DNA of 64,000 nt from Bacteroidales bacterium (GCA_017522105.1 JAFXAA010000030.1:2176-66175); one strand, 5' to 3'. Counted from the stretch's first letter, positions 7,921-51,388 are shown. Notes: generated from the sequence alone by a model not told the origin. Program-made: numbers and translations.

Positions 7921-8050
7921 CTACGGACTTCCTACGGCTGTTCTACGGTTGTTTAACGGTTGTTCTACGGTTGTTCTACGGTTTAAACCGTTAAACAACC
8001 GTAGAACAACCGTTAAACAACCGTAGAACAGCCGTACAAACTCCGTTGCG
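7921..8050. repeat. family A palindromic element, copy 1 (11-nt CTACGGTTGTT-type units, centre GTTTAAAC)
   Basis: Arms of about 53 nt pair with a single 2-nt mismatch. The 103-bp core 7934-8036 is identical to 18421-18523. Confidence 0.95.
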
Positions 8051-8131
8051 GATGGGGCCAACAGGAGGCGGAAAAAGGGCACGGTGGAAAAAAAAGTGGC
8101 ATTTTTTTTTGCTTTTGTTTCGGGAAATATG

Positions 8132-8139
8132 TATATTTG
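8132..8139 (+). promoter_or_regulatory. -7 box TATATTTG
   Basis: Upstream of pruA (ATG at 8200). Confidence 0.55.
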
Positions 8140-8199
8140 CACTTTGATAAAACACCTCCATACGGCAGGAAAACACAAACAATCAATAAAATAAACACT

Positions 8200-9834
8200 A
8201 TGAACAACAGCATTTTCATGTTTCCCAAGCCCGAGAACGAACCCGTTAAAGGCTATGCTCCCGGCAGCCCTGAAAGAGCGGAAATCCGCAAAGCCCTCGA
8301 CGAACTCTACGCCAAGGTGACCGAAATCCCTGCCATCATCGGCGGCAAGGAGGTCAAGACCAAGAATATGGGCGAAGTGGTGATGCCCACGGAGAACCAC
8401 CACGTGCTGGCCCGCTACCACAAGGTGGGCGAGAAGGAGGTGCAGGCCGCCATAGACGCCGCCATGAAGGCCCGCAAGGAATGGGCCGAGACTCCGTGGA
8501 TAGACCGCGCCAGCGTGATGATGAAGATTGCCACGCTCATCAGCGGCAAGTATCGCTACCTCATCAACGCCGCCACCATGCTCGGCCAGGGCAAGACCAC
8601 CATGCAGGCCGAGATCGACAGCGCCTGCGAGCTGGTGGACTTCCTTCGCTATAATACCTACTATGCCAGCCAGATATACAGCGACCAGCCCTGCTCTGAC
8701 AAGGGCACGCTGAACTATGTGACCTACCGCGCCATGGAGGGCTTCGTGTTCGCCATCACGCCGTTCAACTTCACCTCCATCGCCTCCAACCTCTGCCTCA
8801 GCCCCGTGCTGATGGGCAACGTGTGCATCTGGAAGCCCTCGACAACGGCCCTGCTCTCCAACTATATATTAATGAAGATATACAAGGAGGCAGGCCTGCC
8901 CGACGGCGTGGTGAACTTCCTGCCCGGCAGCGGCGCGCTTATTGGCAAGGTGGCCTTCGCCGACGAGAACCTCGCCGGCGTCCACTTCACCGGCTCCACC
9001 GCCACCTTCAAGGGCTTCTGGAAGGCCATCGGCCAGAACATCGACATCTACAAGACCTACCCGAAGATTGTCGGCGAGACGGGCGGCAAGGACTTCATCA
9101 TGGTGCACCGCAGCGCCGACCCCGACCAGGTGGCCACGGCCATCGTCCGCGGCGCCTTCGAGTTCCAGGGCCAGAAGTGCTCCGCCGCAAGCCGCGCCTA
9201 TGTGCCCAAGAGCATGTGGCCCAAGGTGGAGAAGACCGTGGGCAAGATGCTCAAGGAGATCAAGATGGGCGACGTGCGCGACTTCAGTGCCTTCGTCAAC
9301 GCCGTCATCGACGAGGCCTCCTTCGACAACTGCAAGCGCTACATCGATCACGCCAAGAAGAGCAAGGACGCCGAGATAGTCTTCGGCGGCAAGTGCGACA
9401 AGAAGAAGGGCTGGTTCGTGGAGCCCACCGTCATCCTGGCCAAGAAGCCTGACTACAAGAGCATGTGCGAGGAGATCTTCGGACCCATCATCACCATCTT
9501 CGTCTACGACGACAAGGACTATGAGAAGACCTGCCAGCTGTGTGACACCACGTCGCCCTACGCCCTGACGGGTGCCATCTTCGCCACCGACCGCAAAGCC
9601 CTTCGCGCCGGCTACGACCTGCTGAAGAATGCCGCGGGCAACATATACTTCAACGACAAGCCCACGGGTGCTGTCGTCGGCCAGCAGCCCTTCGGTGGCG
9701 CCCGCGCCAGCGGCACCAACGACAAGGCAGGCTCCTACCTCAACCTGCTGCGTTGGGTGAGCCCGCAGGCCGTCAAGGAGACCTTCGACCCCGCCAGCGA
9801 CTACAAGTACCCCTTCATCAGCAGCGCCAAGTGA
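8200..9834 (+). CDS. pruA: L-glutamate gamma-semialdehyde (1-pyrroline-5-carboxylate) dehydrogenase, aldehyde dehydrogenase family
   Basis: ALDH motifs HFTGSTATFKG, IVGETGGKDF and the catalytic Cys in GQKCSAASR. The start is placed at MNNSIFMFPKPENEP. Confidence 0.85.
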   Translation: MNNSIFMFPKPENEPVKGYAPGSPERAEIRKALDELYAKVTEIPAIIGGKEVKTKNMGEVVMPTENHHVLARYHKVGEKEVQAAIDAAMKARKEWAETPWIDRASVMMKIATLISGKYRYLINAATMLGQGKTTMQAEIDSACELVDFLRYNTYYASQIYSDQPCSDKGTLNYVTYRAMEGFVFAITPFNFTSIASNLCLSPVLMGNVCIWKPSTTALLSNYILMKIYKEAGLPDGVVNFLPGSGALIGKVAFADENLAGVHFTGSTATFKGFWKAIGQNIDIYKTYPKIVGETGGKDFIMVHRSADPDQVATAIVRGAFEFQGQKCSAASRAYVPKSMWPKVEKTVGKMLKEIKMGDVRDFSAFVNAVIDEASFDNCKRYIDHAKKSKDAEIVFGGKCDKKKGWFVEPTVILAKKPDYKSMCEEIFGPIITIFVYDDKDYEKTCQLCDTTSPYALTGAIFATDRKALRAGYDLLKNAAGNIYFNDKPTGAVVGQQPFGGARASGTNDKAGSYLNLLRWVSPQAVKETFDPASDYKYPFISSAK

Positions 9835-9835
9835 T

Positions 9836-9942
9836 TGAAGAGTGAAGGGTGAAGGATGAAGAATTCTTTGCCCGGAATAAAAAGAAATTGGCTGGCGTAG
9901 TCGCAACGACCGCGTCAGCCAATTCTTCATTCTTCACTCTTC
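9836..9942. repeat. word-repeat hairpin (GAAGnnT units) with an inner GGCTGACGCG hairpin; probable bidirectional terminator
   Basis: GAAGAGTGAAGGGTGAAGGATGAAGAATT ... AATTCTTCATTCTTCACTCTTC. The inner stem is TTGGCTGGCG...CGCGTCAGCCAA. It sits between the convergent pruA and FKBP genes. Confidence 0.7.
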
Positions 9943-9955
9943 GTTCCTGTTTCTT

Positions 9956-10564
9956 TCAGAGCACCTTGATGAGCTCTACGGTGAAGATCAGGGCGGCGTA
10001 GGGCGGGATGTCGGCGCCGGCGCCGCGCTCGCCGTAGGCGAGGTTGTAGGGGATGTAGAACTTGTAGACGGCGCCTTCTTTCATGAGCTGCACGCCTTCC
10101 GTCCAGCCGCTGATGACCTGGCGCAGGCCGAACTCGGCGGGCTGGTTGCGGCGGTAGCTGGAGTCGAAGACTGTGCCGTCGATGAGCGTGCCCTCATAGT
10201 GGCAGCGCACTGTGTCGCTGGCTTTGGGCTGGCGGCCCGTGCCTTCCTTGACGACCTCGTACTGCAGGCCGCTGGCGGTGACGGTGACTCCGGCCTTGCC
10301 GGCGTTGGCCTTCAGGAAAGCCTCGCCGTCGGCCTTCGCCGTCTTGCCGCGCTCGGCGGCTTCGGCCTGCTGGCGCTCCTCCAGCTCGTTGAAGAAGTGC
10401 TCCAGCACCGCGTTGGCCTCGGTGTGGCTCATCTTGGGCTGCCGCCCTTCGAGGACGTCGCGTATGGCTTCGGCGTAATCGTCTATGTTCAGGCTCTTCT
10501 GGAGCCCCATTCCGATAAGTTGGTGGGCAATGTTGTGGCCCAATGCATAACTCAGTTTATCCAT
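9956..10564 (-). CDS. FKBP-type peptidyl-prolyl cis-trans isomerase
   Basis: FKBP C-terminal domain (VRCHYEGTLIDGTVFDSS...GWTEG...IPPYAALIFTVEL). The start overlaps the acyltransferase stop by 8 nt. Confidence 0.9.
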   Translation of the reverse strand: MDKLSYALGHNIAHQLIGMGLQKSLNIDDYAEAIRDVLEGRQPKMSHTEANAVLEHFFNELEERQQAEAAERGKTAKADGEAFLKANAGKAGVTVTASGLQYEVVKEGTGRQPKASDTVRCHYEGTLIDGTVFDSSYRRNQPAEFGLRQVISGWTEGVQLMKEGAVYKFYIPYNLAYGERGAGADIPPYAALIFTVELIKVL

Positions 10565-11669
10565 TGTTGTGTTGTTTTGTTTGCGATTTGTTTGATACGC
10601 GTCCTCCCGTGAGCAGCGACGTGGTGCGCGGCATCAGACGCGAGAAGATGGCGTGCAGCAGTGCGCATACCGCCACAGGCACCACTATCTCGGCGGCAAG
10701 TATCAGCCAGAAATGTCCATGGTCGGGGTGGACAAGTAGCTTGCTTATAGGATACACGACCAGGTATTCGGTAATCAGCGGGTGTATGGCGAAAAGCAGG
10801 AAGGCGCTGCCGGCAAGCCAGCCGATAGGCTTGATGTCCTTTCGCTCCACAAGCGTGGCTGCCACTTGTATTGTGGGTACTACAGCCACTATGCTGAAGA
10901 GGTGCTCAATGTATATGAATGAAGGGTTCCATGTACTATGTAGCCATACGTGCAGTGCAATAAGCAGTGTAGGTACTGTAAGGCTTAACCACATGGGCAC
11001 GCGGCGTGCTGTCTCCACGATGTTCATCTTATGGATGCCCATATAAGCCCCTGCGCTGAAAAATAGCAGCGCTGCGGGAAGGTGCTTAAAGATTGGGTGC
11101 CACTGCTCAGGATAGGGGAGTATGTATAATGCGGCAAGGATGATAAGGAGCCAGGGTCGTTTGCTGTGTAGCAGATGATAGAGCTGTAGGCTTATCAGGC
11201 ACACTACTATCAGATCGCGCAAAAACCACAGCTGAAAGGCTTTGGGCATACCCTGGTAGCCTTCGCCGATGCCAAAGAATATGTCAAGTATTTTTTGAGG
11301 GTAGAATAGCTTGATTGACAACCGGCCTTGCAACACCACAACGATGAGTTGCAGCGCCCAGGCAAAAAAGTTCCAGAAGAGGTATGGGATGAGCAGCGTT
11401 CGCACACGTTTCCTTATCTTTTCGCGATAGGTATCGAGGGTGAACGTCTCGGGCTGGCGGAAGAACCAATAGCCGGAGAAGATGAAGAACAGCGGCACGG
11501 CGACGAGGCTGATGGTGCGTAGAATATAGTAAAGTGTTTCCGGCGGTCCTTCGTGTGGCATGGACCAAAGCAGGGCGGTGTCGGTGTGGAGTATGACGAT
11601 GAGCACCATCAGCGGGTAGCGTAGCCACTCAATAGTGCGCGACTGCAGGTTGGTGATGGCGATGGTCAT
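10557..11669 (-). CDS. acyltransferase family 3-like integral membrane protein
   Basis: About 10 hydrophobic helices and an acyltransferase-3-like N-terminus (IEWLRYPLMVLIVILH). It makes an ATGA overlap with the upstream gene. Confidence 0.75.
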   Translation of the reverse strand: MTIAITNLQSRTIEWLRYPLMVLIVILHTDTALLWSMPHEGPPETLYYILRTISLVAVPLFFIFSGYWFFRQPETFTLDTYREKIRKRVRTLLIPYLFWNFFAWALQLIVVVLQGRLSIKLFYPQKILDIFFGIGEGYQGMPKAFQLWFLRDLIVVCLISLQLYHLLHSKRPWLLIILAALYILPYPEQWHPIFKHLPAALLFFSAGAYMGIHKMNIVETARRVPMWLSLTVPTLLIALHVWLHSTWNPSFIYIEHLFSIVAVVPTIQVAATLVERKDIKPIGWLAGSAFLLFAIHPLITEYLVVYPISKLLVHPDHGHFWLILAAEIVVPVAVCALLHAIFSRLMPRTTSLLTGGRVSNKSQTKQHNNG

Positions 11670-12559: not shown

Positions 12560-12575
12560 GGTGTTGTTTCTCTCT

Positions 12576-13880
12576 TTATTCTTGATAGTGACAATTGAAA
12601 CGGCGTTCGTATTCTTCCGCCAGCTGGGGGCGGAAGTCGGGGTGTGCTATGCGGATAAGGTCTTCGGCTCGGTGTTGCAGGGTGCGGCCTTTGAGGCGGG
12701 CAATGCCGTATTCGGTGACGATATAGTCCACGTCGTTGCGCGAGGTGCTGACGGCAGCTCCTGGCGTGAGGAAAGGCTTGATGCGCGAGATGCTCCCGCC
12801 CGCTGCCGTGCTAGGCATGGCGATGATGGCTTTGCCCTCACGTGCAAGTGATGCACCGCGTATGAAGTCAACTTGTCCTCCGATGCCGCTGTATTGGCGC
12901 ATGCCGATGGTTTCGCTGGACACCTGTCCCTGCAGGTCGACCTCGAGGCATGAATTGATGGATATCATGCGGTCGTTCTTGGCAATGATGAGTGGGCTGT
13001 TGACGTAATCAACAGGGTAGAATTCCACATCGGGGTTTTCATCGACGAAGTCGTACAACTCTCGCGGCCCCATGATGAAGGTTACCACAGCCTTGCCACG
13101 ATGCAGCGTCTTGCGGCTGCCGTTGATGACACCCTTGCGCATCAAGTCCATCACTCCGCTGGAGAACATCTCGCTGTGTATGCCGAGGTCGTTTTTCTCT
13201 GTCAGCGACTGCAGCACAGCGTCTGGTATTCCGCCGATGCCTAGCTGCAGCGTCGATCCGTCTGCCACCAGCGAGGCACAGTGGCGTCCGATAGCCATCT
13301 CCACCTCGCCCGGCGAGGGCAAGCGGAGCTCCTGCAGTTGATAAGCGCAGGGGATGATATGGTCTATCTGCGACACATGTATCAGCGTGTCACCATAGGT
13401 GAAAGGCATCATCTCGTTGGTCTCTACGATGACGGTCTTGGCTGCATGGATGGCTGCTTTGGCGTAATCGCAACTCACCCCGAGCGAACAGTAGCCTTCG
13501 GCATTGGGTGGTGTGGCTTGGAAGACAGCCACATCGCATGGGATGTCGTTGCCAATCATCGACGGAACATCTTTGAAGTAGGCAGGGAAAAAGTCACCCT
13601 CCCTGCGTTCTATCACCTCGCGCGAATTTGCCGAGAGGAAGTTGCTCACATGACGGAAGTGACCGAAACAACGCGGCTTGTAGCATGGGTTGTCACCCAG
13701 CGTGGTCATGTGGAAGATGAGCACGTCGTTATAGTCTTCGCAGTGGTCGGCCAATGCCTGCTGTATCAGCCTCGGTGCTGCCGCAGCGTGACCCATCACC
13801 ACACATTGTCCGTCGTGTATGTCTTTGATTGCCTCAAGGGGCTTGCTTACTTTCTTTTTGTAGTCTTCTTTCCAGTTCAT
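12576..13880 (-). CDS. acetyl-CoA hydrolase/transferase family protein (4-hydroxybutyrate CoA-transferase-like)
   Basis: 434 aa, with family-typical segments (GSTLQLGIGGIPDAV, INSCLEVDLQGQVSSE, GIGGQVDF). It is the first gene after the riboswitch. Confidence 0.85.
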   Translation of the reverse strand: MNWKEDYKKKVSKPLEAIKDIHDGQCVVMGHAAAAPRLIQQALADHCEDYNDVLIFHMTTLGDNPCYKPRCFGHFRHVSNFLSANSREVIERREGDFFPAYFKDVPSMIGNDIPCDVAVFQATPPNAEGYCSLGVSCDYAKAAIHAAKTVIVETNEMMPFTYGDTLIHVSQIDHIIPCAYQLQELRLPSPGEVEMAIGRHCASLVADGSTLQLGIGGIPDAVLQSLTEKNDLGIHSEMFSSGVMDLMRKGVINGSRKTLHRGKAVVTFIMGPRELYDFVDENPDVEFYPVDYVNSPLIIAKNDRMISINSCLEVDLQGQVSSETIGMRQYSGIGGQVDFIRGASLAREGKAIIAMPSTAAGGSISRIKPFLTPGAAVSTSRNDVDYIVTEYGIARLKGRTLQHRAEDLIRIAHPDFRPQLAEEYERRFNCHYQE

Positions 13881-14035
13881 AGTATGATAAGTTTATTTTT
13901 TTTTCGCATCGTCGTAGTCGGCAATGCGAACAGTTATATAGTTGCAATAGGGTAGGGCGGGGTGGGCGACAGCCATATGTCGCAGCCTCCAACAAGTGCC
14001 TTATAGACGCGAAAGCATTGCCGAAAAAATCGTAC

Positions 14036-14195
14036 AGGGCAGGTCTCCTGGCTTATCCCTCAAGGCCGAAGTCTTCTCGGAGACGCTTGTCTCCAATGAC
14101 GTTTGTTTTTCTGCCCATCAGCGGTGAATTACAGTTGCGCGACAGCTCATGATTTGCACATGATTCCCTCTTGGCAGCCCCATTACAAGGCTGAC
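14036..14195 (-). promoter_or_regulatory. cobalamin (B12) riboswitch
   Basis: The minus strand reads AAGAGGGAAUCAUGUGCAAAUCAUGAGCUGUCGCGCAACUGUAAU ... GUCAUUGGAGAC...CCGAGAAGAC ... UAAGCCAGGAGACCUGCC. Confidence 0.85.
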
Positions 14196-14268
14196 TCGGT
14201 CGATGTTATTATTTCAAAGTGCTGAATAATTGCCGTCTTGCGAAAGACCGTCTCTCAAAATGGCGATG

Positions 14269-14276
14269 CAAAGATA
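14269..14276 (-). promoter_or_regulatory. -7 box TATCTTTG
   Basis: The plus strand reads CAAAGATA, about 75 nt upstream of the riboswitch core. Confidence 0.55.
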
Positions 14277-14655
14277 CAATCTTTTTCTGTATTATGAAAG
14301 AAAAAATAATACTCTCTGTTTTAAAGTGTGTTTTATAAGTCAAATATTCTCCTGCTCGCCTTCGGCGTCGCGAAATATAGTTGATCTTATAAGTTATTCC
14401 GCCTGTGGCGGTTACGAGTAGCGGCTGATTTATGGTACGTTCTATTTATTTTTCACTTGAGAGTGCGTGTCTTCGGCACGCCGGGGTACATGTGCTTGAT
14501 TGACCCCACACTACAGGTGTGGGGTTATTGATAGCCTCTTGGCTCCATAAAGTCGCCGACCACAGTTCGAGGCACTTCTTAATCAGAGTACTTCTCTTTT
14601 AGTTCTGATTGAGAATTACCAAGCATTCGGATTGATTCCGGTTATTCGGTGTTCG

Positions 14656-15402
14656 TCAGGCATCTTCCATGCCGCCACAGACGGGCAGGACGACGCTGGT
14701 GATGTAGGGGCACATGTCGCTGGCCAGGAAGACGCAGGCCTGTGCCACCTCGTCCACGGTGCCGGGGCGTTTCATAGGTATGCGGCTGCACCAGGTGTCC
14801 ATGAGCTCCTTGGGTATGTCGGCCGTCATCTCGGTCTGCACGAATCCCGGGGCCACCACGTTGACGCGTATGTTGCGTGCGGCGAACTCCTTGGCGCAGC
14901 TCTTGCTGAAGCCTATGATGGCGGCTTTGGAGGCTGCGTAGTTGGCCTGGTTGTAGTTGCCGGCGATGCCCACCACCGAACCCATGTTTACTATGGAGCC
15001 GTGTCCCTGGCGCCACATGGCGGGCTGTATGGCCTTGGTCATGCAGAAGACGCTCTTGAGGTTGGTGTGCATCACGCGGTCGAACTGCTCCTCTGTCATG
15101 CGCTTCACGGCGCTGTCGTCGGTGATGCCGGCGTTGTTGACGAGTATGTCCACTTTGCCGAAGTCGGCGAGGACGTCCTTCACAAATGCCTGAGCCTGTT
15201 CATACTCTGCCACATCGGCGGCGTAGCCTTTGGCTTTCACGCCGAGGGCGGAGAGCTCCTGCTCCACGGCAATCATCTTATCGTTGCGTGTGCGTCCGCA
15301 GAAAGCCACATCGCAGCCCTCCTTAGCGAACCGCACGGCTATGGCGTGACCGATGCCGCGTGTGGCACCGGTGACTATGGCGGTCTTGTTCTGAAGTATC
15401 AT
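14656..15402 (-). CDS. fabG: 3-oxoacyl-[ACP] reductase (SDR)
   Basis: TGATRGIG cofactor motif, the catalytic YAASK, and a FabG-like length of 248 aa. Confidence 0.85.
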   Translation of the reverse strand: MILQNKTAIVTGATRGIGHAIAVRFAKEGCDVAFCGRTRNDKMIAVEQELSALGVKAKGYAADVAEYEQAQAFVKDVLADFGKVDILVNNAGITDDSAVKRMTEEQFDRVMHTNLKSVFCMTKAIQPAMWRQGHGSIVNMGSVVGIAGNYNQANYAASKAAIIGFSKSCAKEFAARNIRVNVVAPGFVQTEMTADIPKELMDTWCSRIPMKRPGTVDEVAQACVFLASDMCPYITSVVLPVCGGMEDA

Positions 15403-15458
15403 CTATGAAATAAAAAAAGCCTCACTCCAATGCCGGAGTGAGGCTTTGTGGTTAATGA

Positions 15459-16487
<1,029 letters not shown>

Positions 16488-16519
16488 TTATATTAAACTT
16501 TTGTTGATTGATTGTTTTA

Positions 16520-16527
16520 CAAAAGTA
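16520..16527 (-). promoter_or_regulatory. -7 box TACTTTTG (gap)
   Basis: The plus strand reads CAAAAGTA, 53 nt upstream of the gap ATG. Confidence 0.5.
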
Positions 16528-16569
16528 TTAAACATTTTCGACATGTGCAAACCTTTTTTAATATTTTCG

Positions 16570-16577
16570 TATCTTTG
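16570..16577 (+). promoter_or_regulatory. -7 box TATCTTTG (mtgA)
   Basis: Lies 10 nt before the ATG at 16588. Confidence 0.55.
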
Positions 16578-16587
16578 CACTCCGGCA

Positions 16588-17436
16588 ATGGCAAAAGAGA
16601 AACGACATAAAACATTGAAGGCCAAAGGGCAGAAGCATAAAGGAGGCCTCAAGCCGTGGGGCGCATTGAGCTTCGTGGGCAAGGTGTGGCGCGTGCTGTG
16701 GCTGACCGTCGTCACCCTGTGGCTCGTCACCGTGCTGCAGGTGCTCCTCGGCTGGTTCATCAACCCTCCGCTCACCCCCCTCATGGTGCAGCGCTTCTTC
16801 CAGCAGGTGGGCGACGGGGAGCGCGCAGTGCGCTTCGAGCGCGACTATGTGCCACTGGACAGCATCAGCAACAACCTGATTACCGCCGTTGTGTATGCCG
16901 AAGACGGTCTCTTCATGTATCACCATGGCTTCGACGTCAAGCAGCTCAAGGCCGCCTACCGCGAAAACAAGAGCGGCCGCCGCTTCCGCGGCGGGAGCAC
17001 CATCAGCAACCAGACGGCCAAAAACGCCTTCCTGCCGCACTCGCGCACCATGGCGCGCAAGGCCTTCGAGGCCTACTATACGGTTATGATAGAGGCCGTT
17101 TGGGGCAAGCGGCGCATCATGGAGGTGTACCTCAACATTATAGAGTTCGGCGACGGCATCTACGGCGCCGAGGCTGCCGCGCAGCACTACTTCGGCCACT
17201 CGGCCCGCCGTCTCACGCAGACAGAGGCCGCCCAGCTTGCTGCAACCCTGCCGGCACCCCTCAAGCGCAACCCCGCACACCAGACACCCTTCTTCCGCAA
17301 GCAGACCCAGCGCATCAAGGAACGCTTTAAGTGGGGTGCTGTAAACATTGATTTACCGATGGAAGAGCGCCGTGGTAGATACAAGGACCGCGAGACTCTG
17401 CTGGAGTTCTACCTATGGACGAAACGACAGAAATAG
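16588..17436 (+). CDS. mtgA: monofunctional peptidoglycan glycosyltransferase
   Basis: GT51 motifs AEDGLFMYHHGFD and RGGSTISNQTAKN. The start is placed at MAKEKRHK; the longer track ORF runs antisense into gap. Confidence 0.85.
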   Translation: MAKEKRHKTLKAKGQKHKGGLKPWGALSFVGKVWRVLWLTVVTLWLVTVLQVLLGWFINPPLTPLMVQRFFQQVGDGERAVRFERDYVPLDSISNNLITAVVYAEDGLFMYHHGFDVKQLKAAYRENKSGRRFRGGSTISNQTAKNAFLPHSRTMARKAFEAYYTVMIEAVWGKRRIMEVYLNIIEFGDGIYGAEAAAQHYFGHSARRLTQTEAAQLAATLPAPLKRNPAHQTPFFRKQTQRIKERFKWGAVNIDLPMEERRGRYKDRETLLEFYLWTKRQK

Positions 17437-18341
17437 AACGCACGTGGATGCGCTACCGGCGCGACTACGAAGCCTACCTTAAGCTTGAGCGCGGCATGGC
17501 CGACAACAGCGTGAAAGCATACATGCAGGACTTTACCCACATGCAGCAGTTCATGTGCGAGCAAGGCATTGCGCCAGAGCAAGTAGCACATGCCGACCTA
17601 CAGTGTTTGTTGAAGCAGTTGTGCGACCTTGGCATTGCCCCGGCATCGCAACGTCGTATGATTGCCGGCTGGCGCATGTTCTTCCACATGCTCGTAGTGG
17701 AGGACGTGCTCAAGGACAGCCCCGCCGCCCTCCTCGACCTGCCCATCAAGCCCAAGCACCTGCCCGATGTGCTCACCGACGACGAGGTCACGGCCATACA
17801 GGATACCTTTGACCGCAGCATCCCCGAAGGCGAGCGCAACTACGTGATTGTGGAGGTGTTGTACGGTTGCGGCCTGCGTGTGTCCGAGCTCGTCAACCTC
17901 AAACTCTCCAACATATACGTCGAAGAGCAGTACCTGCAGGTGATAGGCAAAGGCGACAAGGAACGGTGGGTGCCGATCAACGAACACGCCCTCAGGCTCT
18001 TGCTTGACTACATACACCTTGTGCGCAGCCATCAGGAGCCAACGCCAGGCGAGGAGAAGATAGTCTTCCTCAACCGCCGCGGGCACCGCCTGACGCGCCA
18101 GATGGTGTTCATCATGCTGCGCGACGCCGTTGCCAAGGCTGGCATAAAGAAAAAGGTGAGCCCCCATTCGCTGCGCCACAGCTTCGCCACCGAACTTGTG
18201 GAGAACGGGGCCGACCTCCGCTCTGTGCAGGAGATGCTTGGCCATGAAAGCATCAGCACCACAGAGATTTACACCCACCTCACCCGCGACACCCTGCGCA
18301 ACACCATCGCCGCCTACCACCCCCATTACGCCAAGCATTGA
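17415..18341 (+). CDS. xerD: site-specific tyrosine recombinase XerD
   Basis: Core-binding N-terminus plus HSLRHSFATELVENGADLRSVQEMLGHESISTTEIYTH. It overlaps the mtgA end by 22 nt. Confidence 0.85.
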   Translation: MDETTEIERTWMRYRRDYEAYLKLERGMADNSVKAYMQDFTHMQQFMCEQGIAPEQVAHADLQCLLKQLCDLGIAPASQRRMIAGWRMFFHMLVVEDVLKDSPAALLDLPIKPKHLPDVLTDDEVTAIQDTFDRSIPEGERNYVIVEVLYGCGLRVSELVNLKLSNIYVEEQYLQVIGKGDKERWVPINEHALRLLLDYIHLVRSHQEPTPGEEKIVFLNRRGHRLTRQMVFIMLRDAVAKAGIKKKVSPHSLRHSFATELVENGADLRSVQEMLGHESISTTEIYTHLTRDTLRNTIAAYHPHYAKH

Positions 18342-18418
18342 CGCCTCCGCCACCCCGTCGGCATGACCTGCGGCATGCCCCTCCGCTCCCTTTTTTGTCC
18401 CCATCCTCACCGGCCCCG

Positions 18419-18536
18419 GTACGGCTGTTCTACGGTTGTTTAACGGTTGTTCTACGGTTGTTCTACGGTTTAAACCGTTAAACAACCGTAGAACAACCGT
18501 TAAACAACCGTAGAACAGCCGTAGGGACTCCGTAGA
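18419..18536. repeat. family A palindromic element, copy 2
   Basis: 18421-18523 is identical to 7934-8036. The right terminus GCCGTAGGGACTCCGTAG is complete and the left terminus is truncated. Confidence 0.95.
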
Positions 18537-18652
18537 GGGGCCGCGGGGGGCATGGAGGGTTGCCGGTGCGATGGAGTGTTGGTGGAGGTGTTGAATGTCA
18601 GATGATTGGTGCAAAATCGGCATTTTTTTACTGTAATATGGAAAAATAATTA

Positions 18653-18660
18653 TAATTTTG
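18653..18660 (+). promoter_or_regulatory. -7 box TAATTTTG (rex)
   Basis: Lies 27 nt before the ATG at 18687. Confidence 0.55.
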
Positions 18661-18686
18661 CACTCTGTAAAAACGGTGCACCGGAT

Positions 18687-19382
18687 ATGAAAGACAAGCA
18701 CAACTCACTGGTTATTTTGAAGTCCACGCTCAGCCGCCTGCCGTCCTACTATTGTTTTGTGGAGGAGCGCAAGGCCGCTGGCGAGGAGTATGTCTCGTCG
18801 GTTGCCATGGCAGAGAGCCTTGGCATCAATCCTGTACTTGTGCGCAAGGATTTGGCGAGCATCAGCAGGGAGCCCGGGCGTCCCAAGGTTGGATTCAGGG
18901 TGGAGACCCTGCTGGCTGACATGAAGAAGTACCTCGGCTACGACCACTATGACGAGGCGGTGCTTGTCGGGGTCGGTGCCCTGGGCCACGTGCTGCTGCA
19001 GTACGGCGGCTTTGCCAACTACGGCCTCGGCATTGTGGCGGGGTTCGACAAGGAGCCGTGTTCGGCCACGGTCGGCGGGCGCCCTGTGCTGCCGGTCGAG
19101 AAGCTGGTGTCGTTCCTTCGCCGCACACATATAGGTATAGGTATTATAGCCGTGCCTGCGCGCGAGGCGCAGAAGGTGGCGCAGATGTTGATTGACGGTG
19201 GCGTGCGTGCCATCTGGAATTTCGCACCGACGACCCTTGAGCTGCCGCGTGAGATACTGGTGAAGAACGAGAACCTGGCGGCGTCGCTCGCCGCTCTGAC
19301 CACCGAGCTGCGCCGCCGCATTGGCGGCGGCGGGGTGGATGAACCGCCCGCGGTGGATAAAAAAACGATAAAAAAGTATTGA
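18687..19382 (+). CDS. rex: redox-sensing transcriptional repressor Rex
   Basis: Winged-helix N-terminus (LSRLPSYYCFVEE...VSSVAMAESLGINPVLVRKDLA) and a Rossmann motif VGVGALGHVLL. Confidence 0.85.
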   Translation: MKDKHNSLVILKSTLSRLPSYYCFVEERKAAGEEYVSSVAMAESLGINPVLVRKDLASISREPGRPKVGFRVETLLADMKKYLGYDHYDEAVLVGVGALGHVLLQYGGFANYGLGIVAGFDKEPCSATVGGRPVLPVEKLVSFLRRTHIGIGIIAVPAREAQKVAQMLIDGGVRAIWNFAPTTLELPREILVKNENLAASLAALTTELRRRIGGGGVDEPPAVDKKTIKKY

Positions 19383-19399
19383 TTTTTGAAATAAAGTTG

Positions 19400-19407
19400 T
19401 ATATTTG
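19400..19407 (+). promoter_or_regulatory. -7 box TATATTTG (hydrogenase cluster)
   Basis: Followed by an ~85-nt leader before the ATG at 19496. Confidence 0.5.
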
Positions 19408-19495
19408 CATCGCAAAACAGGGAAGCGAGAATGGTGGAGGAGTCGGATTGACAGCCTGTTAGATGAAAATTGACAACAATAAAAATCAATAAAAA

Positions 19496-19795
19496 ATGAC
19501 GATAAAGGTTTGTGTCGGCAGTTCATGCCACCTGAAAGGATCATACGATGTGATTGAGGCCTTCACCGAGGTGCTCAAGAAATACGATGTTGAGGATGTA
19601 GTGGAGCTGCAGGCGAGCTTTTGCCTCGGCCACTGCGCCAAGGGTGTGAATGTGGCCTGCGAGGGCGTCGTTCCCGCCGCCCACGGTTCCCAGGTGGAGG
19701 AGACCCCCGAGGGATTCATACTGCACAACGTCAGCGCCGGCAATGTGGAAGAGTTGTTTGCCAGCGAGATATATCCCAAACTGAACCTGAATTAG
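19496..19795 (+). CDS. thioredoxin-like [2Fe-2S] ferredoxin domain protein
   Basis: Cys pattern CVGSSCHLKG ... CLGHCAKG, typical of NuoE/HymA-like 2Fe-2S modules. Confidence 0.7.
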   Translation: MTIKVCVGSSCHLKGSYDVIEAFTEVLKKYDVEDVVELQASFCLGHCAKGVNVACEGVVPAAHGSQVEETPEGFILHNVSAGNVEELFASEIYPKLNLN

Positions 19796-19884
19796 GACTA
19801 CATGCGGTCGTGTGTGTGTCCCGCGGCAAATGCCGCAGGGCGGGTTTGCGATTGCTCCACTATATAATATATTAAGGAAAAACC

Positions 19885-21639
19885 ATGTCAGAATATCTTG
19901 AATTCCGGACGGTGCAGTGCAAGGACTGCTACCGTTGCCTGCGCGAGTGTCCTGTGAAGGCAATAAACATCAAGGATCACCACGCTCAAATATTGGAAGA
20001 CCACTGCATACTGTGCGGCCATTGCACGAAGGTGTGCCCCCAGAAGGCCAAAATAGAGCACAGCGAGCTGCCCGTGGTGCGCGAGTTGCTGCGCAGCGGA
20101 GCCCGCGTGGCGGCCACGGTGGCGCCGTCGTTCATCAGCAGCCTCGGGCAGGAGGACTTTTCGGAGCTGCGCATAGCGCTGGCCAAGCTTGGCTTCGCCG
20201 TGGCCGAGGAGACTGCTGTGGGCGCGCAGGCTGTGGTGGAGGAATACAAACGGGTGCTAAAAACGGGAGAGATGAGGAACTTCATAACCTCTGCTTGTCC
20301 GGCGGCGTGCCGCCTTATCCAAATGTACTACCCCAAAGCTCTCCCGTACCTTGCCCCCGTTGACTCGCCCATGGTGGCGCACGCCAAGATGCTGCGCAAG
20401 GGCGATCCCGGACTGAAGGTGGTTTTCATCGGGCCCTGCATAGCCAAGAAGCGCGAGGCCGACGAGCATGGCATAGACGCCGTGCTCACTTTCGACGAGC
20501 TGCTGACCCTCTTCCGTGAGAGCGGCATCGACCTGGCGAACATCAACAAGCTGGCTGTGGGTTCCGACAACGGTTGCGCCAACCGTGCCAAGGCATTCCC
20601 TGCCACACAGGGCATCATCCGTTCGTTCGACGCGTTGCCCGAGGGCTACCGCTACCTTGCTGTGGACGGGGTGGACCGCCTGGCCGGGGTGCTGGAGAAC
20701 ATTGAGAGCCTGGACCATGTGTTCATTGAGATGAATGTGTGCCCCGGAGGCTGCATCAACGGCCCTTGTGCCATAGAGAACGAAGGGGGCTTGATGAAGG
20801 CCGAGGCCGACATCGACGCTTATGTGGAGCGCGAGATGGCCACGCGCAAGCACGCTCCCGCTCCCGACGCCGGGGTGTCGTTGGCCTATGCCTACCCGCG
20901 GCTGCGCGCCAAGAGCCGTCCGGCCACGGAGAAAGAGATAGAGGATGTGCTGCACCGCACCGGCAAGTTTTCGCCTGCCGACGAGTTGAACTGCGGTGCT
21001 TGCGGCTACAGCACGTGCCGCGAGAAGGCTTGGGCTGTGGTCAACGGCTATGCCGACATAGACATCTGCCTGCCATATATGCGCAAGCGAGCCGAGAGCC
21101 TTGCTGTGGACATAGTGCGCAACTCGCCCGAAGGCGTGGTGCTGGTGGACTCGGACATGAATATTGTGGACATCAACGCCTCGGCCATGAAGATGCTTGG
21201 CCTTGGCGGCACACCGGAGAGCGTGCAGGGGCACCCCATGGCGGAGAACTTCCAGCCAATAGATTTCTACAATGCCTACACGAAGAAATGCCGCACAGAG
21301 AACCCGTGCATCCACATCGCTGCCACCGACCGCTATGTGAGCCTCACGGTGAGCAACCTCAGCGAACAGAATCTGTTGTTTGGCCTTATGAAGGACATTT
21401 CGGAGCAGGTCAACTATGAGAAGAAGCTCGACAAGGTGAAGGCGGACACCATAGCCACCACCGACAACCTAATCATGAAGCAGATGCGTGTGGTGCAGGA
21501 GGTGGCGTCCCTTCTCGGCGAGACCACGGCGGAGACCAAGGTGGCCCTGATGAACCTGAAGAACATGCTTGCCGACGGCCATTCGGACCTGCGCTCCGAC
21601 GGGCGGCCAACAGATTGGAAGACAGCGAAAAAGGAGTGA
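19885..21639 (+). CDS. sensory [FeFe]-hydrogenase-like protein with C-terminal PAS domain (HydS-type, group C)
   Basis: Two 4Fe-4S motifs at the N-terminus. H-cluster motifs are TSACP (Ala in place of the proton-relay Cys), GPCIAKKRE and MNVCPGGCINGP. There is an extra 4-Cys motif, CGACGYSTC...C, then a PAS-like segment. Confidence 0.85.
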   Translation: MSEYLEFRTVQCKDCYRCLRECPVKAINIKDHHAQILEDHCILCGHCTKVCPQKAKIEHSELPVVRELLRSGARVAATVAPSFISSLGQEDFSELRIALAKLGFAVAEETAVGAQAVVEEYKRVLKTGEMRNFITSACPAACRLIQMYYPKALPYLAPVDSPMVAHAKMLRKGDPGLKVVFIGPCIAKKREADEHGIDAVLTFDELLTLFRESGIDLANINKLAVGSDNGCANRAKAFPATQGIIRSFDALPEGYRYLAVDGVDRLAGVLENIESLDHVFIEMNVCPGGCINGPCAIENEGGLMKAEADIDAYVEREMATRKHAPAPDAGVSLAYAYPRLRAKSRPATEKEIEDVLHRTGKFSPADELNCGACGYSTCREKAWAVVNGYADIDICLPYMRKRAESLAVDIVRNSPEGVVLVDSDMNIVDINASAMKMLGLGGTPESVQGHPMAENFQPIDFYNAYTKKCRTENPCIHIAATDRYVSLTVSNLSEQNLLFGLMKDISEQVNYEKKLDKVKADTIATTDNLIMKQMRVVQEVASLLGETTAETKVALMNLKNMLADGHSDLRSDGRPTDWKTAKKE

Positions 21640-36058: not shown

Positions 36059-36066
36059 CAAAAGTA
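36059..36066 (-). promoter_or_regulatory. -7 box TACTTTTG (clpC)
   Basis: The plus strand reads CAAAAGTA, 23 nt upstream of the clpC ATG. Confidence 0.55.
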
Positions 36067-36186
36067 CATCTTTCCTACCATCTGCAACTTCCATGCCAAA
36101 AGTTGTTATCAACATCCCCGTGTCAATACCACCGTCCGCCGTTGTACGCGGCTCCACTTTCTCCTGCCTCCCCATGCATCCTCACC

Positions 36187-36311
36187 GGAGTCCCTACGGC
36201 ATTTCTTCAGTAGTTCTTCAGTAGTTCTTCAGTAGTATTTCAGTGTTTGACTGAAGAACTACTGAAGAACTACTGAAGAACTACTGAAGAAATGCCGTAC
36301 CGGCTCCGTAC
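36187..36311. repeat. family B palindromic element, copy 1 (11-nt TTCTTCAGTAG units)
   Basis: GGAGTCCCTACGGCATT-(TCTTCAGTAGT)x3...loop TTTCAGTGTTTGAC...(CTACTGAAGAA)x3-ATGCCGTACCGGCTCCGTAC. Confidence 0.95.
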
Positions 36312-36410: not shown

Positions 36411-36418
36411 TATCTTTG
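36411..36418 (+). promoter_or_regulatory. -7 box TATCTTTG (argS)
   Basis: Lies 29 nt before the ATG at 36448. Confidence 0.6.
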
Positions 36419-42075: not shown

Positions 42076-42185
42076 CTACGGAGTCCCTACGGCCGTTCTT
42101 CAGTAGTTCTTCAGTAGTTCTTCAGTCAAACACTGAAGAACTACTGAAGAACTACTGAAGAACGGCCGTAGGGGCTCCGTACCGG
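42076..42185. repeat. family B palindromic element, copy 2 (inverted loop orientation)
   Basis: CTACGGAGTCCCTACGGCCG-(TTCTTCAGTAG)x2-TTCTTCAGT-caaac-ACTGAAGAA-(CTACTGAAGAA)x2-CGGCCGTAGGGGCTCCGTACCGG. Confidence 0.95.
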
Positions 42186-42385
42186 ATGCGGTGGAGAGAG
42201 TGTGTGTATGGAACCCTAATAGGGTTATGATATGTTTGGTTGTATGTTGCTGACTATTAAAACGAAACCCATACGGGGTATTGGTGTGGCTGATGGGCGG
42301 AGGGGCGGCTGTCAATGGATGGTGCCTGTGCGGTATTGCGGCCGAAGGTGGATAAAAAAAGAGCTGTTGGAACGGAAAAAAATCG

Positions 42386-46273: not shown

Positions 46274-46293
46274 GGTTTATAGTGTTTATATTG

Positions 46294-48261: not shown

Positions 48262-48364
48262 TTTGTTCACTGTTTGGGTTAATTGTTTTCCGACTGCAAA
48301 AGTACTACTATTATGATTCATGCGCATTAACATATCGTCGGTTATGTTTGGCAAAAAGTACTAT

Positions 48365-48398
48365 TTTGTGGATAATATCAAAAAAATCCGTATTTTTG
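48365..48398 (+). promoter_or_regulatory. promoter: TTTG and TATTTTTG, only 4 nt before the ATG
   Basis: TTTG at 48365-68, TATTTTTG at 48391-98, ATG at 48403. Confidence 0.55.
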
Positions 48399-48402
48399 CA
48401 CT

Positions 48403-49260
48403 ATGGAAAATGAGCATACATACACCCATCCACTCAACCTCTACCAACAGAAAATCAAGGAAGAAGGCATCGTTGTCCTCGACGACGTGAGGGGGCTGCC
48501 AACAGGCGACAAGCCATTCGTGTCGCCCGACTATGTCATCTGCATAGGCCATCGGGGACACATCAACCTTAAGTATGACGACATATCAGACTATTCCGGG
48601 CAGTACACCGTGGCCGTCATCTTCCCAAACCACAGCCTCCTGGAGGTGGACAAGACCGACGACTACCGTGCCACCCTGATAATTGTCAGTTCATCGGTGC
48701 TCAACGACCCCATGCTGAAGATTATCAGCCAGATGCGCTACCTCTATGAGCCGCACCCGATGGTGAAACTGGACAAACGCGAATACAAGATGGTGGCCAA
48801 TGTGGTGGACGGTATGCGCGAGATACAGCGTCTCAAACTGCCCGACTGGCGCATCCTGATGACACGTCTGCTCGATTTCTTCCTGCGCCTGCTCAGCCAC
48901 TACCGTGCCGGCAAAGTCGACGATGGCGGCGCCAACATGCGTGTCAGCAAGCAGTTCCACCAGCACCTCTTGCAACATGTCCGCGAGCACCGCGACGTGG
49001 CCTTCTATGCCGACAAGGCCTGCCTGTCGGCCAAACACTTCAGCGCGGTGATAAAAAACGAGACAGGCCATACGGCCGCCTACTGGATACACCTCCATGT
49101 GGTGGTCGAGGCCAAGATGCTGCTGCACATGCGGCGCGACCTCAGTGTGCAGGCCGTCGCCGACCTCCTGGGCTTCGACGAGCAAGCCGCCTTCAGCCGC
49201 TACTTCCGTCGCGAGACGGGCCTCTCCCCCACCCAGTTCCGCGAAGGCATGGACAGTTGA
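48403..49260 (+). CDS. AraC-family transcriptional regulator
   Basis: C-terminal double HTH (ADKACLSAKHFSAVIKNETG...LGFDEQAAFSRYFRRETGLSPTQFR). Confidence 0.85.
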   Translation: MENEHTYTHPLNLYQQKIKEEGIVVLDDVRGLPTGDKPFVSPDYVICIGHRGHINLKYDDISDYSGQYTVAVIFPNHSLLEVDKTDDYRATLIIVSSSVLNDPMLKIISQMRYLYEPHPMVKLDKREYKMVANVVDGMREIQRLKLPDWRILMTRLLDFFLRLLSHYRAGKVDDGGANMRVSKQFHQHLLQHVREHRDVAFYADKACLSAKHFSAVIKNETGHTAAYWIHLHVVVEAKMLLHMRRDLSVQAVADLLGFDEQAAFSRYFRRETGLSPTQFREGMDS

Positions 49261-49351
49261 CACCGCGGTCGGCAAAAAGCAAAATACCCTGCCATGGAAC
49301 ATGAGTCATATTCCATAGCAGGGCGATTGTAGCGTATACCCTACAGGGTCG

Positions 49352-49474
49352 TCATTCGGCCGCTTCGGCCATCACCACGCTGCCGCGATAGGCGGGGCAG
49401 GTGTGGTGGGTGCAGCTGGCAGCCACCAGCGCAAGCACCGCGACGGCAAGCAGTGTCAAAGCTTTCCTTTTCAT
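49352..49474 (-). CDS. possible 40-aa micro-lipoprotein
   Basis: MKRKALTLLAVAVLALVAAS|CTHHTCPAYRGSVVMAEAAE. The start overlaps the ftcD stop (TAATG). There is no independent support. Confidence 0.35.
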   Translation of the reverse strand: MKRKALTLLAVAVLALVAASCTHHTCPAYRGSVVMAEAAE

Positions 49475-51171
49475 TACAGACCAATCTTTTCGTTTACAAT
49501 CTTCAATATCTCGGCCTCCTGCCTGATGGCTTCGTCCTCGATGGCCTGGGCCTTGGCCAGTATGTCGGCCTTGAAGGCCTCGTCCTTGAGCGAAGAGGCG
49601 TTGATTTTCACGTTCAAGTGAGCACCCATGACGGCGCTGCGTGCTGCCAGCGAGCCCACGCCGCCGTCGGTGACGCTGTTGGGGTTGCCCCACTCCACCA
49701 TGGCGCGGCAGACCTCGAAGGCCTCAAGGCTGCGCTGCATGGTGCGGAAAGGCACCTCGGTGGCGAAGCGTGTGGCCTCCTGGATGGCGGCGCTGCGTGC
49801 GGCCTTCTCCTCGTCGGTCTTCTTGGGCAGGCCGAAGGCGTCCATAATCTTGTTGAAGGCGGCGGTGTCCTCGTCGACGAGGTGCAGCAGCTCGTCCTTC
49901 AGCTGCTGACCCTTGACGGCCACGTCGCTGTACTTCTCCCACTCGTCGTCGTAGGCAGCCTTGCCGCCGGTGAGGTTGGCCACCATGGTGCCGAGGCTTG
50001 CCGCCAGGGCGCCCATGTAGGCGCTGACGGAGCCGCCGCCGGGCGCGGGGCTCTCGCTGGCCGTCTCGTCGCAGAAGCCGCGGCAGGTGAGGTCGACCAG
50101 CTTCTTCTTCGAGTGGTCCTCAATGAGGTATTCTATAACCTTCTCCTTGGGGTCGAAGGGCTTGAGGTCGTCGAGGCCCATGCTCTTTATGGCCACCTTC
50201 ATCAGCTCTTCCTCGCTGACGCCGAGGGAGCGCTGCTGTTTGGCCAGGTAGTAACGGCCGGCGTCGATGAGGACGCTCTTCGGGATGAGGCCCACAATCT
50301 CGCAGCCCGTGACGCGGAGGCCGCGGTTCTGGGCGCAGCGGCACACCTCGTCGAAACAGAGGTGCACGGGGGCCACCTTGATGGAGGTGATGTTCATGCT
50401 CACCTGCGCGATGCCATAGTCCTCGATGTACCAGCCGATGGCCTTGGTGCCTTTCAGGGTGCCGGGAATCATTATGGTCTTGCCGTTCTCGTCCTTGATG
50501 GGCTTGCCACTGGGTTTGCCGCCCTCGCGTTTGGGGCGGCCCTTCTCGCGCACGTCGAAGGCGATGGCGTTGGCGCGGCGCGTGGAGGTGGTGTTGAGGT
50601 TGTAGTTGATGGCCACGAGGAAGTCGCGGGCACCCACCTGAGTGGCGCCGGTGCGGGCGGTGTGGTCGTTCCAGGCGTTGGGGCCGAAGTCGGGCTTCCA
50701 CTCCTCGGTGCCGAGGCGGCTGCTGAGGCTCTCATATTCGCCGGTGCGGCAGTAGGCCAGGTTGCGGCGTTCGGGTTTGAAGGCGGCGTTCTCGTAGCAG
50801 TAGATGGGCACCTGCAGCTCGTCGCCGAGGCGCTTGCCCAGCTTGTGGGCATACTCCACGACCTCTTCCATGGTGATGCCAGCCACGGGGATGAGGGGGC
50901 ACACGTCGGTGGCACCCTGGCGCGGGTGGGCGCCGTGGTGCTGCGTCATGTCGATGAGCTCGGCGGCCTTCTTCACCACCTGGAAAGCGGCTTCAAGCAC
51001 AGGCTCCGGCTCACCCACGAAGGTGATGACGGTGCGGTTGGTGGTCTGGCCGGGGTCCACGTCGAGGAGCTTCACACCTTCAACCTTTTCAATCTCGGCT
51101 GTAACCTGATTGATGATATCCATGTTGCGGCCTTCGCTGATATTAGGCACGCATTCAATGAGTTGCTTCAT
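49474..51171 (-). CDS. ftcD: bifunctional glutamate formimidoyltransferase / formimidoyltetrahydrofolate cyclodeaminase
   Basis: N-terminus MKQLIECVPNISEGRN is typical of formiminotransferase. The 565-aa length fits the transferase plus the helical cyclodeaminase domain. Confidence 0.9.
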   Translation of the reverse strand: MKQLIECVPNISEGRNMDIINQVTAEIEKVEGVKLLDVDPGQTTNRTVITFVGEPEPVLEAAFQVVKKAAELIDMTQHHGAHPRQGATDVCPLIPVAGITMEEVVEYAHKLGKRLGDELQVPIYCYENAAFKPERRNLAYCRTGEYESLSSRLGTEEWKPDFGPNAWNDHTARTGATQVGARDFLVAINYNLNTTSTRRANAIAFDVREKGRPKREGGKPSGKPIKDENGKTIMIPGTLKGTKAIGWYIEDYGIAQVSMNITSIKVAPVHLCFDEVCRCAQNRGLRVTGCEIVGLIPKSVLIDAGRYYLAKQQRSLGVSEEELMKVAIKSMGLDDLKPFDPKEKVIEYLIEDHSKKKLVDLTCRGFCDETASESPAPGGGSVSAYMGALAASLGTMVANLTGGKAAYDDEWEKYSDVAVKGQQLKDELLHLVDEDTAAFNKIMDAFGLPKKTDEEKAARSAAIQEATRFATEVPFRTMQRSLEAFEVCRAMVEWGNPNSVTDGGVGSLAARSAVMGAHLNVKINASSLKDEAFKADILAKAQAIEDEAIRQEAEILKIVNEKIGL

Positions 51172-51194
51172 GTGTTGTAGTTTTAGTTTTGCTG

Positions 51195-51225
51195 CAAAGA
51201 TACACCATTTTTTTATTATGGCAAA
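51195..51225 (-). promoter_or_regulatory. promoter: TTTG and TATCTTTG (ftcD)
   Basis: The plus strand has CAAAGATA at 51195-51202 and CAAA at 51222-25, with a 19-nt spacer. Confidence 0.6.
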
Positions 51226-51257
51226 ATATTTTTGACATTCCTTCCCTGCGTATCCCC

Positions 51258-51388
51258 CACGGAGCCCCTACGGCATTTCTTCAGTAGTTCTTCAGTAGTT
51301 CTTCAGTAGTATTTCGGTGTTTGACTGAAGAACTACTGAAGAACTACTGAAGAACTACTGAAGAAATGCCGTAGGGGCTCCGTAGGGG
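51258..51388. repeat. family B palindromic element, copy 3
   Basis: The core differs from copy 1 by one substitution (TTTCGGTG vs TTTCAGTG). The 17-nt termini ACGGAGCCCCTACGGCA / TGCCGTAGGGGCTCCGT are perfectly complementary. Confidence 0.95.

Follow-up and report, generated by a model that had tools for sequence, protein, structure and literature searches.

Why should unrelated gene gaps of one bacterial genome carry long palindromes that follow the same plan and, in part, the same sequence? The question is raised by five imperfect palindromes (E1 to E5) in a 64,000-nt stretch of DNA from a Bacteroidales bacterium (GCA_017522105.1 JAFXAA010000030.1:2176-66175), referred to here, at its full length, as the window. 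They lie where an initial annotation had placed them, measure about 105-140 bp, and have arms built of head-to-tail 11-nt units. The elements are a family from a clade of uncultured rumen Bacteroidales, relatives of the metagenome-assembled genome (MAG) RUG061. We favour the reading, at a probability of roughly 0.55, that they are non-autonomous, self-perpetuating palindromic minisatellites homogenised by copying between loci. Their sites are inherited vertically, and the arrays gain and lose units between strains. Literature searches turned up no description of this repeat family, which appears to be an undescribed variant of the bacterial dispersed palindromic repeats, unusual both in its construction and in its location upstream of promoters.

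Palindromes built from 11-nt units

In the five window elements the arms (50-67 nt, 87-98% complementary) are separated by 0-5 nt. Tandem Repeats Finder (TRF) reported period 11 in 10/10 arms, and a period scan of the 64 kb revealed period-11 arrays at these ten arms only, with almost nothing else at periods 7-15. Folded as single-stranded DNA, the elements reach −58 to −74 kcal/mol (z = −16 to −20). Across the family, copies are imperfect palindromes of 100-200 bp.

Reading the register arm by arm from the centre outward in 11-nt steps, we find that the whole arm forms one continuous 11-nt register. From the outside to the centre it passes through degenerate C-rich units (CTnCGnCCCCn), units of the form xTACGGAGYCC or xTACGGACCCG, a transition unit (xTACGGC(CG/AT)TT or CTACGGCTGTT), two to four perfect, AT-richer inner units, and the central loop of 0-5 nt. 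Arm complementarity per 11-nt bin shows no sharp outer end (0.89, 0.99, 0.97, 0.73, 0.62, 0.52, 0.39 and 0.30 from the centre outward; 25 elements), and the base of the core carries conserved mismatches. Unit positions 1, 4, 6, 7, 10 and 11 are conserved across ~20 unit types, giving the skeleton C..C.GT..TT.

The initial annotation had described two families, A (E1 and E2) and B (E3 to E5), in which different 11-nt interior words, both starting with CTAC, are set between copies of one terminus. The words are real, with 10 matches to CTACGGTTGTT and 18 to CTACTGAAGAA against ~0.5 expected. Their common CTAC start is an artefact of mixing strands, because CTACTGAAGAA is the right-arm (reverse-complement) reading of B; compared in the same arm and register, the A unit CTACGGTTGTT and the B unit CTTCAGTAGTT are identical at 8/11 positions. 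The 17-nt terminus TACGGAGYCCCTACGGC has 8 matches in the window within 2 mismatches (0 expected from shuffles), located at the left end of E1, the right end of E2 and, for E3, E4 and E5, at left and right ends alike. Its bracketing of every element is therefore borne out at 8/10 ends and not at the right end of E1 (GCCGTACAAACTCCGTT, 4 positions off) or the left end of E2 (CACCGGCCCCGGTACGGC, about 6 off). Nor is the terminus a separate module: it consists of two more units of the array register, xTACGGAGYCC followed by xTACGGC(CG/AT)TT. What stands is that A and B form one modular class, with an outer array in common and an exchangeable interior that has been swapped at orthologous sites.

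We also observed further 11-nt unit types (CAACGATACTT, CTTCGGCGATC, CATCTGTTGTT, CTTTGGTATTT, CTTATGTATTT) at loci L034 (1991-2096), L006 (~7069-7240), L047 (~3700-3866), L125 (2420-2475 and 9560-9632) and L172 (21400-21490). Some of the loci with further unit types lack TACGG outer units, and some are mosaics whose arms carry different unit types.

Identical cores at inherited sites

E1 and E2 are 10 kb apart, have unrelated flanks, and yet share an identical 104-nt run, internal asymmetries included. No target-site duplication surrounds these identical cores (flanks tcc/caa versus cgg/ggg). Several pairs of copies in RUG061 share 83-nt identical cores (TACGGC...GCCGTA), in both orientations. 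Cores are 100% identical at unrelated loci of one genome and different between genomes, and the copied segments are bounded by TACGG...CCGTA. This boundary lies inside the 17-nt terminus; together with the gradual decay of arm complementarity and the absence of target-site duplication, it speaks against the view of the terminus as a fixed, recognised end. The terminus is moreover specific to a lineage, as A-type interiors in relatives carry other outer units (CTCCGTCCCCT, CTCCGACTGTT).

The sites of the elements are not scattered but inherited across species. E5 is orthologous to an element at RUG061 locus L030, and the E2 site is orthologous to L013 of the same genome. An 11-nt-periodic palindrome is found upstream of argS in 5/6 related lineages sampled (L169, L170, L172, L174 and L177, besides the window), at 84-91% ArgRS identity and with a left neighbour that varies (clpB, tpiA or priA). 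Its units are of type B in the window, CTATCGTTGTA in L172 and CTTCGGTATTT in L174; L170 has a collapsed A-like form, and L169 and L177 have collapsed forms with outer units only. The element is absent in L178/L179, the sole lineage with argS behind a co-directional gene. In L169 (9700-9790) the collapsed argS element has other short tandem arrays as neighbours, AATTAAC (x5) and CTCAAAACTCCTAA (x2).

The content of orthologous sites turns over. The xerD/rex site has an A interior in the window and a B interior in RUG061. Upstream of the 324-aa gene that adjoins dxs, the window has a B element (E4) and L170 an A-type one. In the window the loop of B elements is TTTGA, with E4 (GTCAAACAC) in reverse complement relative to E3 and E5. 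No TTTGA occurs in RUG061, whose loops are mainly GCNGC, alongside GCCAC/GTGGC variants, and the two genomes disagree in this way even where E5 and L030 are orthologous. As to outer units, L170, L135 and L157 have the CTCCG type, whereas the window and RUG061 have the TACGG type. Strains differ as well: 8 nt inside the array separate L172 from L173, and a single unit separates L187 from L189. In L180 and L182 the whole interior is missing, GGTACGGA being joined directly to CTCCGTAG. Short-read contigs break inside the element at both loci examined.

The initial annotation had added that its claim would suffer if A and B never co-occurred in other genomes. Co-occurrence was not seen outside the window genome, with no A in ~240 kb of RUG061 and RUG377 DNA, and the idea of two co-resident families is to that extent weakened.

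Two observations concern the rex site. Identity between the window and L013 of RUG061 is 91% to the left of E2 (window 14656-18329) and 98% to its right (18519-21470), which places E2 at the edge of a block seemingly exchanged recently between two species. In a more distant lineage (L187, 3768-3824, and the same site of L189) the region upstream of rex holds a one-armed, direct CACACTATTTA array that follows C-rich DNA and has no inverted arm.

The assignment to a Bacteroidales clade agrees with the gene content of the window. The genes flanking the elements are Bacteroidota housekeeping genes (Pfam), T9SS-sorted (type IX secretion system) proteins among them, and Rfam identifies the small signal recognition particle (SRP) RNA of Bacteroidales and two cobalamin riboswitches. 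Identity to RUG061 is ~90% where the two are syntenic. Among the matches listed from a terminus scan of species-representative genomes, at least 24 are in the rumen MAG RUG061 and at least 6 in RUG377; the others listed number one per genome, all but one in unrelated taxa, a level that fits chance. Matches in Streptomyces, Rhizobium and other genomes were set aside as singletons of this kind (chance estimate, ~140 exact matches per 596 Gb). Viral contigs and phage and plasmid collections yielded no match to the B word; the terminus and the A array matched once each, by chance, and these matches fell in coding DNA or a simple direct repeat.

A metagenome scan with the A word gave 120 matches, most of them to an unrelated repeat on GC-rich, apparently eukaryotic contigs (Ga0115005, Ga0209712), and ~13 relevant loci. 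This abundant marine repeat (L049-L168; Ga0115005_*, Ga0209712_*) opens with ACGGTTGTTCTACGGTTGTTCTTATAGGTTTCACCTGTCCGGCGATAAC, two exact family A units, a match that we judge to be a coincidence amplified by copy number.

Pfam scans of ~45 open reading frames (ORFs) in the window revealed housekeeping genes only, with no transposase or HUH gene. As the initial annotation had noted, the window also holds no integrase apart from xerD (17415-18341), its only integrase-fold protein, and no RAYT, the transposase of repetitive extragenic palindromes (REPs). An all-against-all comparison of proteins encoded around 30 elements of the RUG loci yielded no recurring transposase-like or other protein family. 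No RAYT was found in the ~0.7 Mb of DNA inspected, and no parent insertion sequence (IS) was seen in the window or in the Bacteroidales loci inspected. XerD was considered as the mobilising enzyme and rejected: its gene lies beside one element of many, although the adjacency is kept in RUG061.

Placement upstream of promoters and its explanation

All copies are intergenic. For each element of the window, Bacteroidetes −7 boxes (TAnnTTTG; Table 1) face outward at a distance of 50-120 nt, with the element on their upstream side, and the boxes so associated are 9-10 of the 29 in the 64 kb. In the RUG loci an exact TAnnTTTG box is present on 29/43 promoter-facing sides. Positioned upstream of outward boxes, the arrays are outside the flanking transcripts. 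Based on gene gaps called with a codon-model gene caller and checked against Pfam, elements occupy 4/6 divergent, 0/7 convergent and 1/~32 tandem (co-directional) gaps of the window (Fisher p = 5e-4), including 4/4 of the divergent gaps longer than 150 nt. The ~27 independent sites counted over all loci comprise ~20 in divergent gaps and ~7 in co-directional gaps, with no secure case of a convergent one. The initial annotation had alternatively suggested regulatory modules with a common anchor; the strict promoter-upstream placement lends indirect support to this candidate regulatory role.

Two features of the neighbourhood touch these sites. The cobalamin riboswitches lie at window 7592-7807 and 14021-14214 on the minus strand, the first of them preceding nrdD, with its promoter box abutting the E1 region. 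The 324-aa gene beside E4 adjoins dxs.

Table 1. Palindromic elements of the window and the −7 boxes that face away from them.
Feature	Position	Strand	Sequence or type	Context
E1	7921..8047		family A palindrome, units CTACGGTTGTT/TAACGGTTGTT	divergent gap: nrdD (−), aldehyde dehydrogenase (+)
E1 core	7933..8036		TACGGCTGTT...AACAGCCGTA, 104 nt	100% identical to E2 core
E2	18405..18538		family A palindrome	tandem gap: 78 nt past xerD stop, upstream of rex (+)
E2 core	18420..18523			identical to E1 core
E3	36186..36308		family B palindrome, units CTTCAGTAGTT, loop GTGTTTGAC, core 36195-36299	divergent gap: clpB (−), argS (+)
E4	42077..42181		family B palindrome, core 42088-42170	divergent gap: conserved 324-aa gene (−), priA (+)
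E5	51252..51390		family B palindrome, core 51269-51373	divergent gap: formiminotransferase-cyclodeaminase (FTCD) gene (−), T9SS-sorted protein gene (+)
−7 box	7808..7815	−	TAnnTTTG	abuts upstream side of nrdD riboswitch; second box 7836-7843
−7 box	8132..8139	+	TATATTTG	aldehyde dehydrogenase gene, 85 nt beyond E1
−7 box	18653..18660	+	TAATTTTG	rex, 115 nt beyond E2
−7 box	36059..36066	−		clpB, 120 nt beyond E3
−7 box	36411..36418	+	TATCTTTG	argS, 103 nt beyond E3
−7 box	42231..42238	+	TATGTTTG	priA, 50 nt beyond E4
−7 box	51195..51202	−		FTCD gene, 50 nt beyond E5
−7 box	51480..51487	+	TATCTTTG	T9SS protein gene, 90 nt beyond E5

If the elements perpetuate themselves by copying between loci, their cores would be repeatedly overwritten from other copies, and two routes may be envisaged. 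An unlinked enzyme acting in trans could carry out hairpin-dependent insertion at the midpoint of a palindrome already in place. Extragenic palindromes are known to receive insertions at their centre from IS1397, ISKpn1 and members of the IS110 family such as ISPpu9 (PMC1525189, PMC12288879), and central insertion would produce the nested layering seen in our elements; unlike these autonomous IS with their transposase gene, the inserted unit here is a short palindrome without coding capacity. Alternatively, the palindrome could break at its centre and then undergo ectopic repair, for which the shared outer units would act as primers. The repair route would account, without a transposase, for the centre-to-edge gradient of homogeneity, the symmetric boundaries, the cores in both orientations, the fixed sites and the exchange of A for B. 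A and B would be two core variants with outer units in common, these units serving as common homology or target rather than as a terminus recognised by a transposase, and the promoter-upstream placement would reflect where long palindromes are tolerated or extruded.

Several observations weigh against this reading. No clean insertion, that is, a filled site facing a site without trace of the repeat, was seen in the loci compared, which leaves transposition to new sites a conjecture. The sole "empty" copies, those of L180 and L182 with no interior, may be library artefacts of hairpin skipping, since a single study supplied both. In the window and the loci inspected, no enzyme acting in trans was identified. 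The full occupancy of wide divergent gaps and the persistence of an array upstream of argS exceed what a purely selfish model predicts and fit a selected function. The conservation of unit positions could likewise reflect constraint, for example by a binding protein, rather than common descent.

These points bear on the main rival reading, which we consider less likely, in which the elements are host cis-elements of promoter regions, structural or protein-binding, and copying between loci is secondary; the two readings are not mutually exclusive. In a structural role, the AT-rich centre and GC-rich base would allow a cruciform, formed under the negative supercoiling of divergent promoters, to buffer or insulate those promoters; extrusion of cruciforms by divergent transcription is established physics (the twin-domain model). 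In a binding role, two inverted arrays of 11-bp units, each about one helical turn, would offer a platform to a DNA-binding or nucleoid protein serving both promoters. Such functions agree with the strict placement of the window copies, each of the five being upstream of outward −7 boxes, and with the enrichment in divergent gaps, both in the window and over the ~27 independent loci. They also agree with the argS array, which persists despite replaced sequence and a changed neighbour gene and is missing where argS follows a co-directional gene, and with the retention of palindromy, 11-nt period and the skeleton C..C.GT..TT while unit sequence changes. Several unit types nevertheless coexist per genome, as A and B do in the window and as the B/C mosaics of L006 and L047 show, which argues against a single sequence-specific binder; some copies have non-complementary arms (L006, L047), mismatches at the core base are conserved, and the spacing to the −7 box varies from 50 to 120 nt. 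The collapsed or interior-less forms at argS (L169, L170, L177) and rex (L180) suggest that the interior is dispensable. More doubtful is a far-reaching form of the idea, in which the arrays are a genome-wide, host-maintained promoter architecture, cruciform and/or protein-coated, that occupies most divergent promoter regions, couples or insulates promoters through supercoiling, and has its own copy-and-replace machinery.

The remaining explanations would make the elements passengers of a transposon, parts of transcripts, or products of assembly. That they are ordinary MITEs (miniature inverted-repeat transposable elements), deletion derivatives of an IS moved by its transposase through the 17-nt terminal inverted repeat and spread by transposition of the cut-and-paste or copy-and-paste type, seems to us improbable. 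Multiple intergenic copies, inverted ends common to two interior families and identical cores at unrelated loci would be expected of MITEs, and BrickBuilt of Porphyromonas gingivalis is a precedent for a minisatellite-carrying MITE in Bacteroidales (PMC4596501). Against this, the elements have neither target-site duplication nor sharp outer end, the boundary of the copied segment falls within the proposed terminus, and relatives with A-type interiors do not conserve that terminus; no IS or transposase is present in the window or recurs beside the elements in the RUG loci, and sites are conserved between species rather than polymorphic. A role in RNA, as bidirectional intrinsic terminators, RNA-stabilising hairpins or small RNA genes, would suit the very stable predicted hairpins and the T-runs that adjoin some copies; we regard it as very unlikely, since the elements lie upstream of outward promoters and outside the flanking transcripts, none is at the 3′ ends of a convergent pair, stems of 50-65 bp are far beyond terminator length, and Rfam gives no gathering-level match on any element, only sub-threshold matches to generic miRNA-precursor hairpins. 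We give next to no credence to an artefact of assembly or sequencing such as fold-back chimeras: short-read contigs do often end inside an element, but the same architecture occurs within long contigs, in many independent assemblies and studies, and, with a sequence particular to each species, at orthologous positions. Among the short-read (Logan) contigs that end inside E3- and E2-type elements are L175 (1-30), L176 (1-20) and L181 (1-20), from the window species or close relatives.

Comparison with known repeats and other features

Proteobacteria and Firmicutes have well-known dispersed palindromic repeats, among them REP, BOX and Correia, whose origin, spread and function are still debated; to our knowledge almost nothing comparable has been described for Bacteroidota. 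REPs are located mostly at gene 3′ ends and inside operons. A REP is an imperfect palindrome of 20-40 nt with a conserved GTAG 5′ of the hairpin foot, and REPs are reported to act as transcription terminators and mRNA stabilisers (PMC3333891). The elements described here resemble the REP/BIME/REPIN repeats of Proteobacteria and their RAYT (TnpA-REP) in being high-copy extragenic palindromes with mosaic modular combinations and conserved stem mismatches. They are likewise homogeneous within a genome and different between lineages, persist vertically at fixed sites for long periods, mostly lack an adjacent transposase, and carry the GTAG/CTAC tetranucleotide in their units. Copy number and homogeneity are also REP-like (5 copies per 64 kb in the window, at least 24 matches listed from RUG061, and identical cores at unrelated loci). 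Size and GTAG position place them outside REP: stems are 50-65 bp of 11-nt units, and the stem itself contains CTAC, in its 5′ arm, and GTAG, in its 3′ arm. Their location also differs, upstream of promoters and never between convergent genes.

The BrickBuilt MITE shares with our elements a Bacteroidales host, multiple intergenic copies near promoters, and conserved ends around a minisatellite of variable unit number (PMC4596501). In the published description, the BrickBuilt unit is 23 nt long and repeated in a single direct array, enclosed by separate leader and tail modules with small inverted ends (PMC4596501). The unit here is 11 nt, the two arrays are inverted so as to give a nearly perfect palindrome, and further units of that array make up the ends. 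Distinct ends enclosing a direct array of 23- or 45-nt units, the plan of BrickBuilt and BOX, were thus not found. BOX elements of Streptococcus pneumoniae have boxA and boxC ends and 45-nt boxB units in direct orientation; Correia/NEMIS elements of Neisseria have a TA target duplication and sites for integration host factor (IHF). Both are modular dispersed repeats with pairing conserved ends, often near promoters and with a mobilising enzyme that is unknown or acts in trans, as may be the case here, and BOX also varies in internal unit number. Unlike our elements, neither has an 11-nt period or is palindromic over its whole length.

A model for a protein-binding role is provided by the operator and centromere arrays that ribbon-helix-helix proteins bind, among them the 11-bp iterons of plasmid R1 parC and the heptad arrays of omega protein: the units are short (about one helical turn or less), both direct and inverted, and flank promoters. 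A replicon has one site of this sort, or a few, and one unit sequence is matched to one protein; here the sites number in the tens to hundreds, and a genome holds several unit sequences. Other familiar classes fit less well. Unlike a MITE, the elements show no target-site duplication at defined terminal inverted repeats, and they are not the short GC-rich hairpins, with a U-run closing a transcription unit at its 3′ end, that mark intrinsic terminators. They also differ from Bacteroidales invertons, in which inverted repeats enclose an invertible promoter segment, since the arms are only 0-5 nt apart; the loop does, however, occur in both orientations (E4 versus E3/E5).

Four aspects give the family wider interest. 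Its 11-nt modular construction records family history in layers, and stable sites with overwritten cores separate the location of a repeat from its mode of copying. The near-exclusive placement upstream of promoters, especially divergent ones, is the opposite of that of REP and points to a link with transcription-driven supercoiling. If breakage of contigs inside elements is general, the elements fragment MAGs from the rumen and are under-counted there.

Other repeats and insertions were observed in the same DNA. Within the truB ORF (61640-62647), window 62325-62409 is a palindrome of four AATGCGTN units (period 8), a ~15-nt loop and four inverted units, 86% complementary. It lies in a ~50-aa insertion (aa 222-276) relative to solved TruB structures and keeps the frame open; no copy of this period-8 palindrome was found among the 189 loci. 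In locus L172 a block at 13227-18353, between the genes for acyl-ACP thioesterase and dxs, contains a REP_ORF2-G2P gene (single-stranded-DNA phage replication initiator) and small ORFs, and is probably an integrated microvirus-like prophage. Tandem coding repeats of 60 and 78 nt are present at window 63221-63603, in a surface-protein ORF (Flg_new_2/DUF6383; 62803-63903, minus strand).

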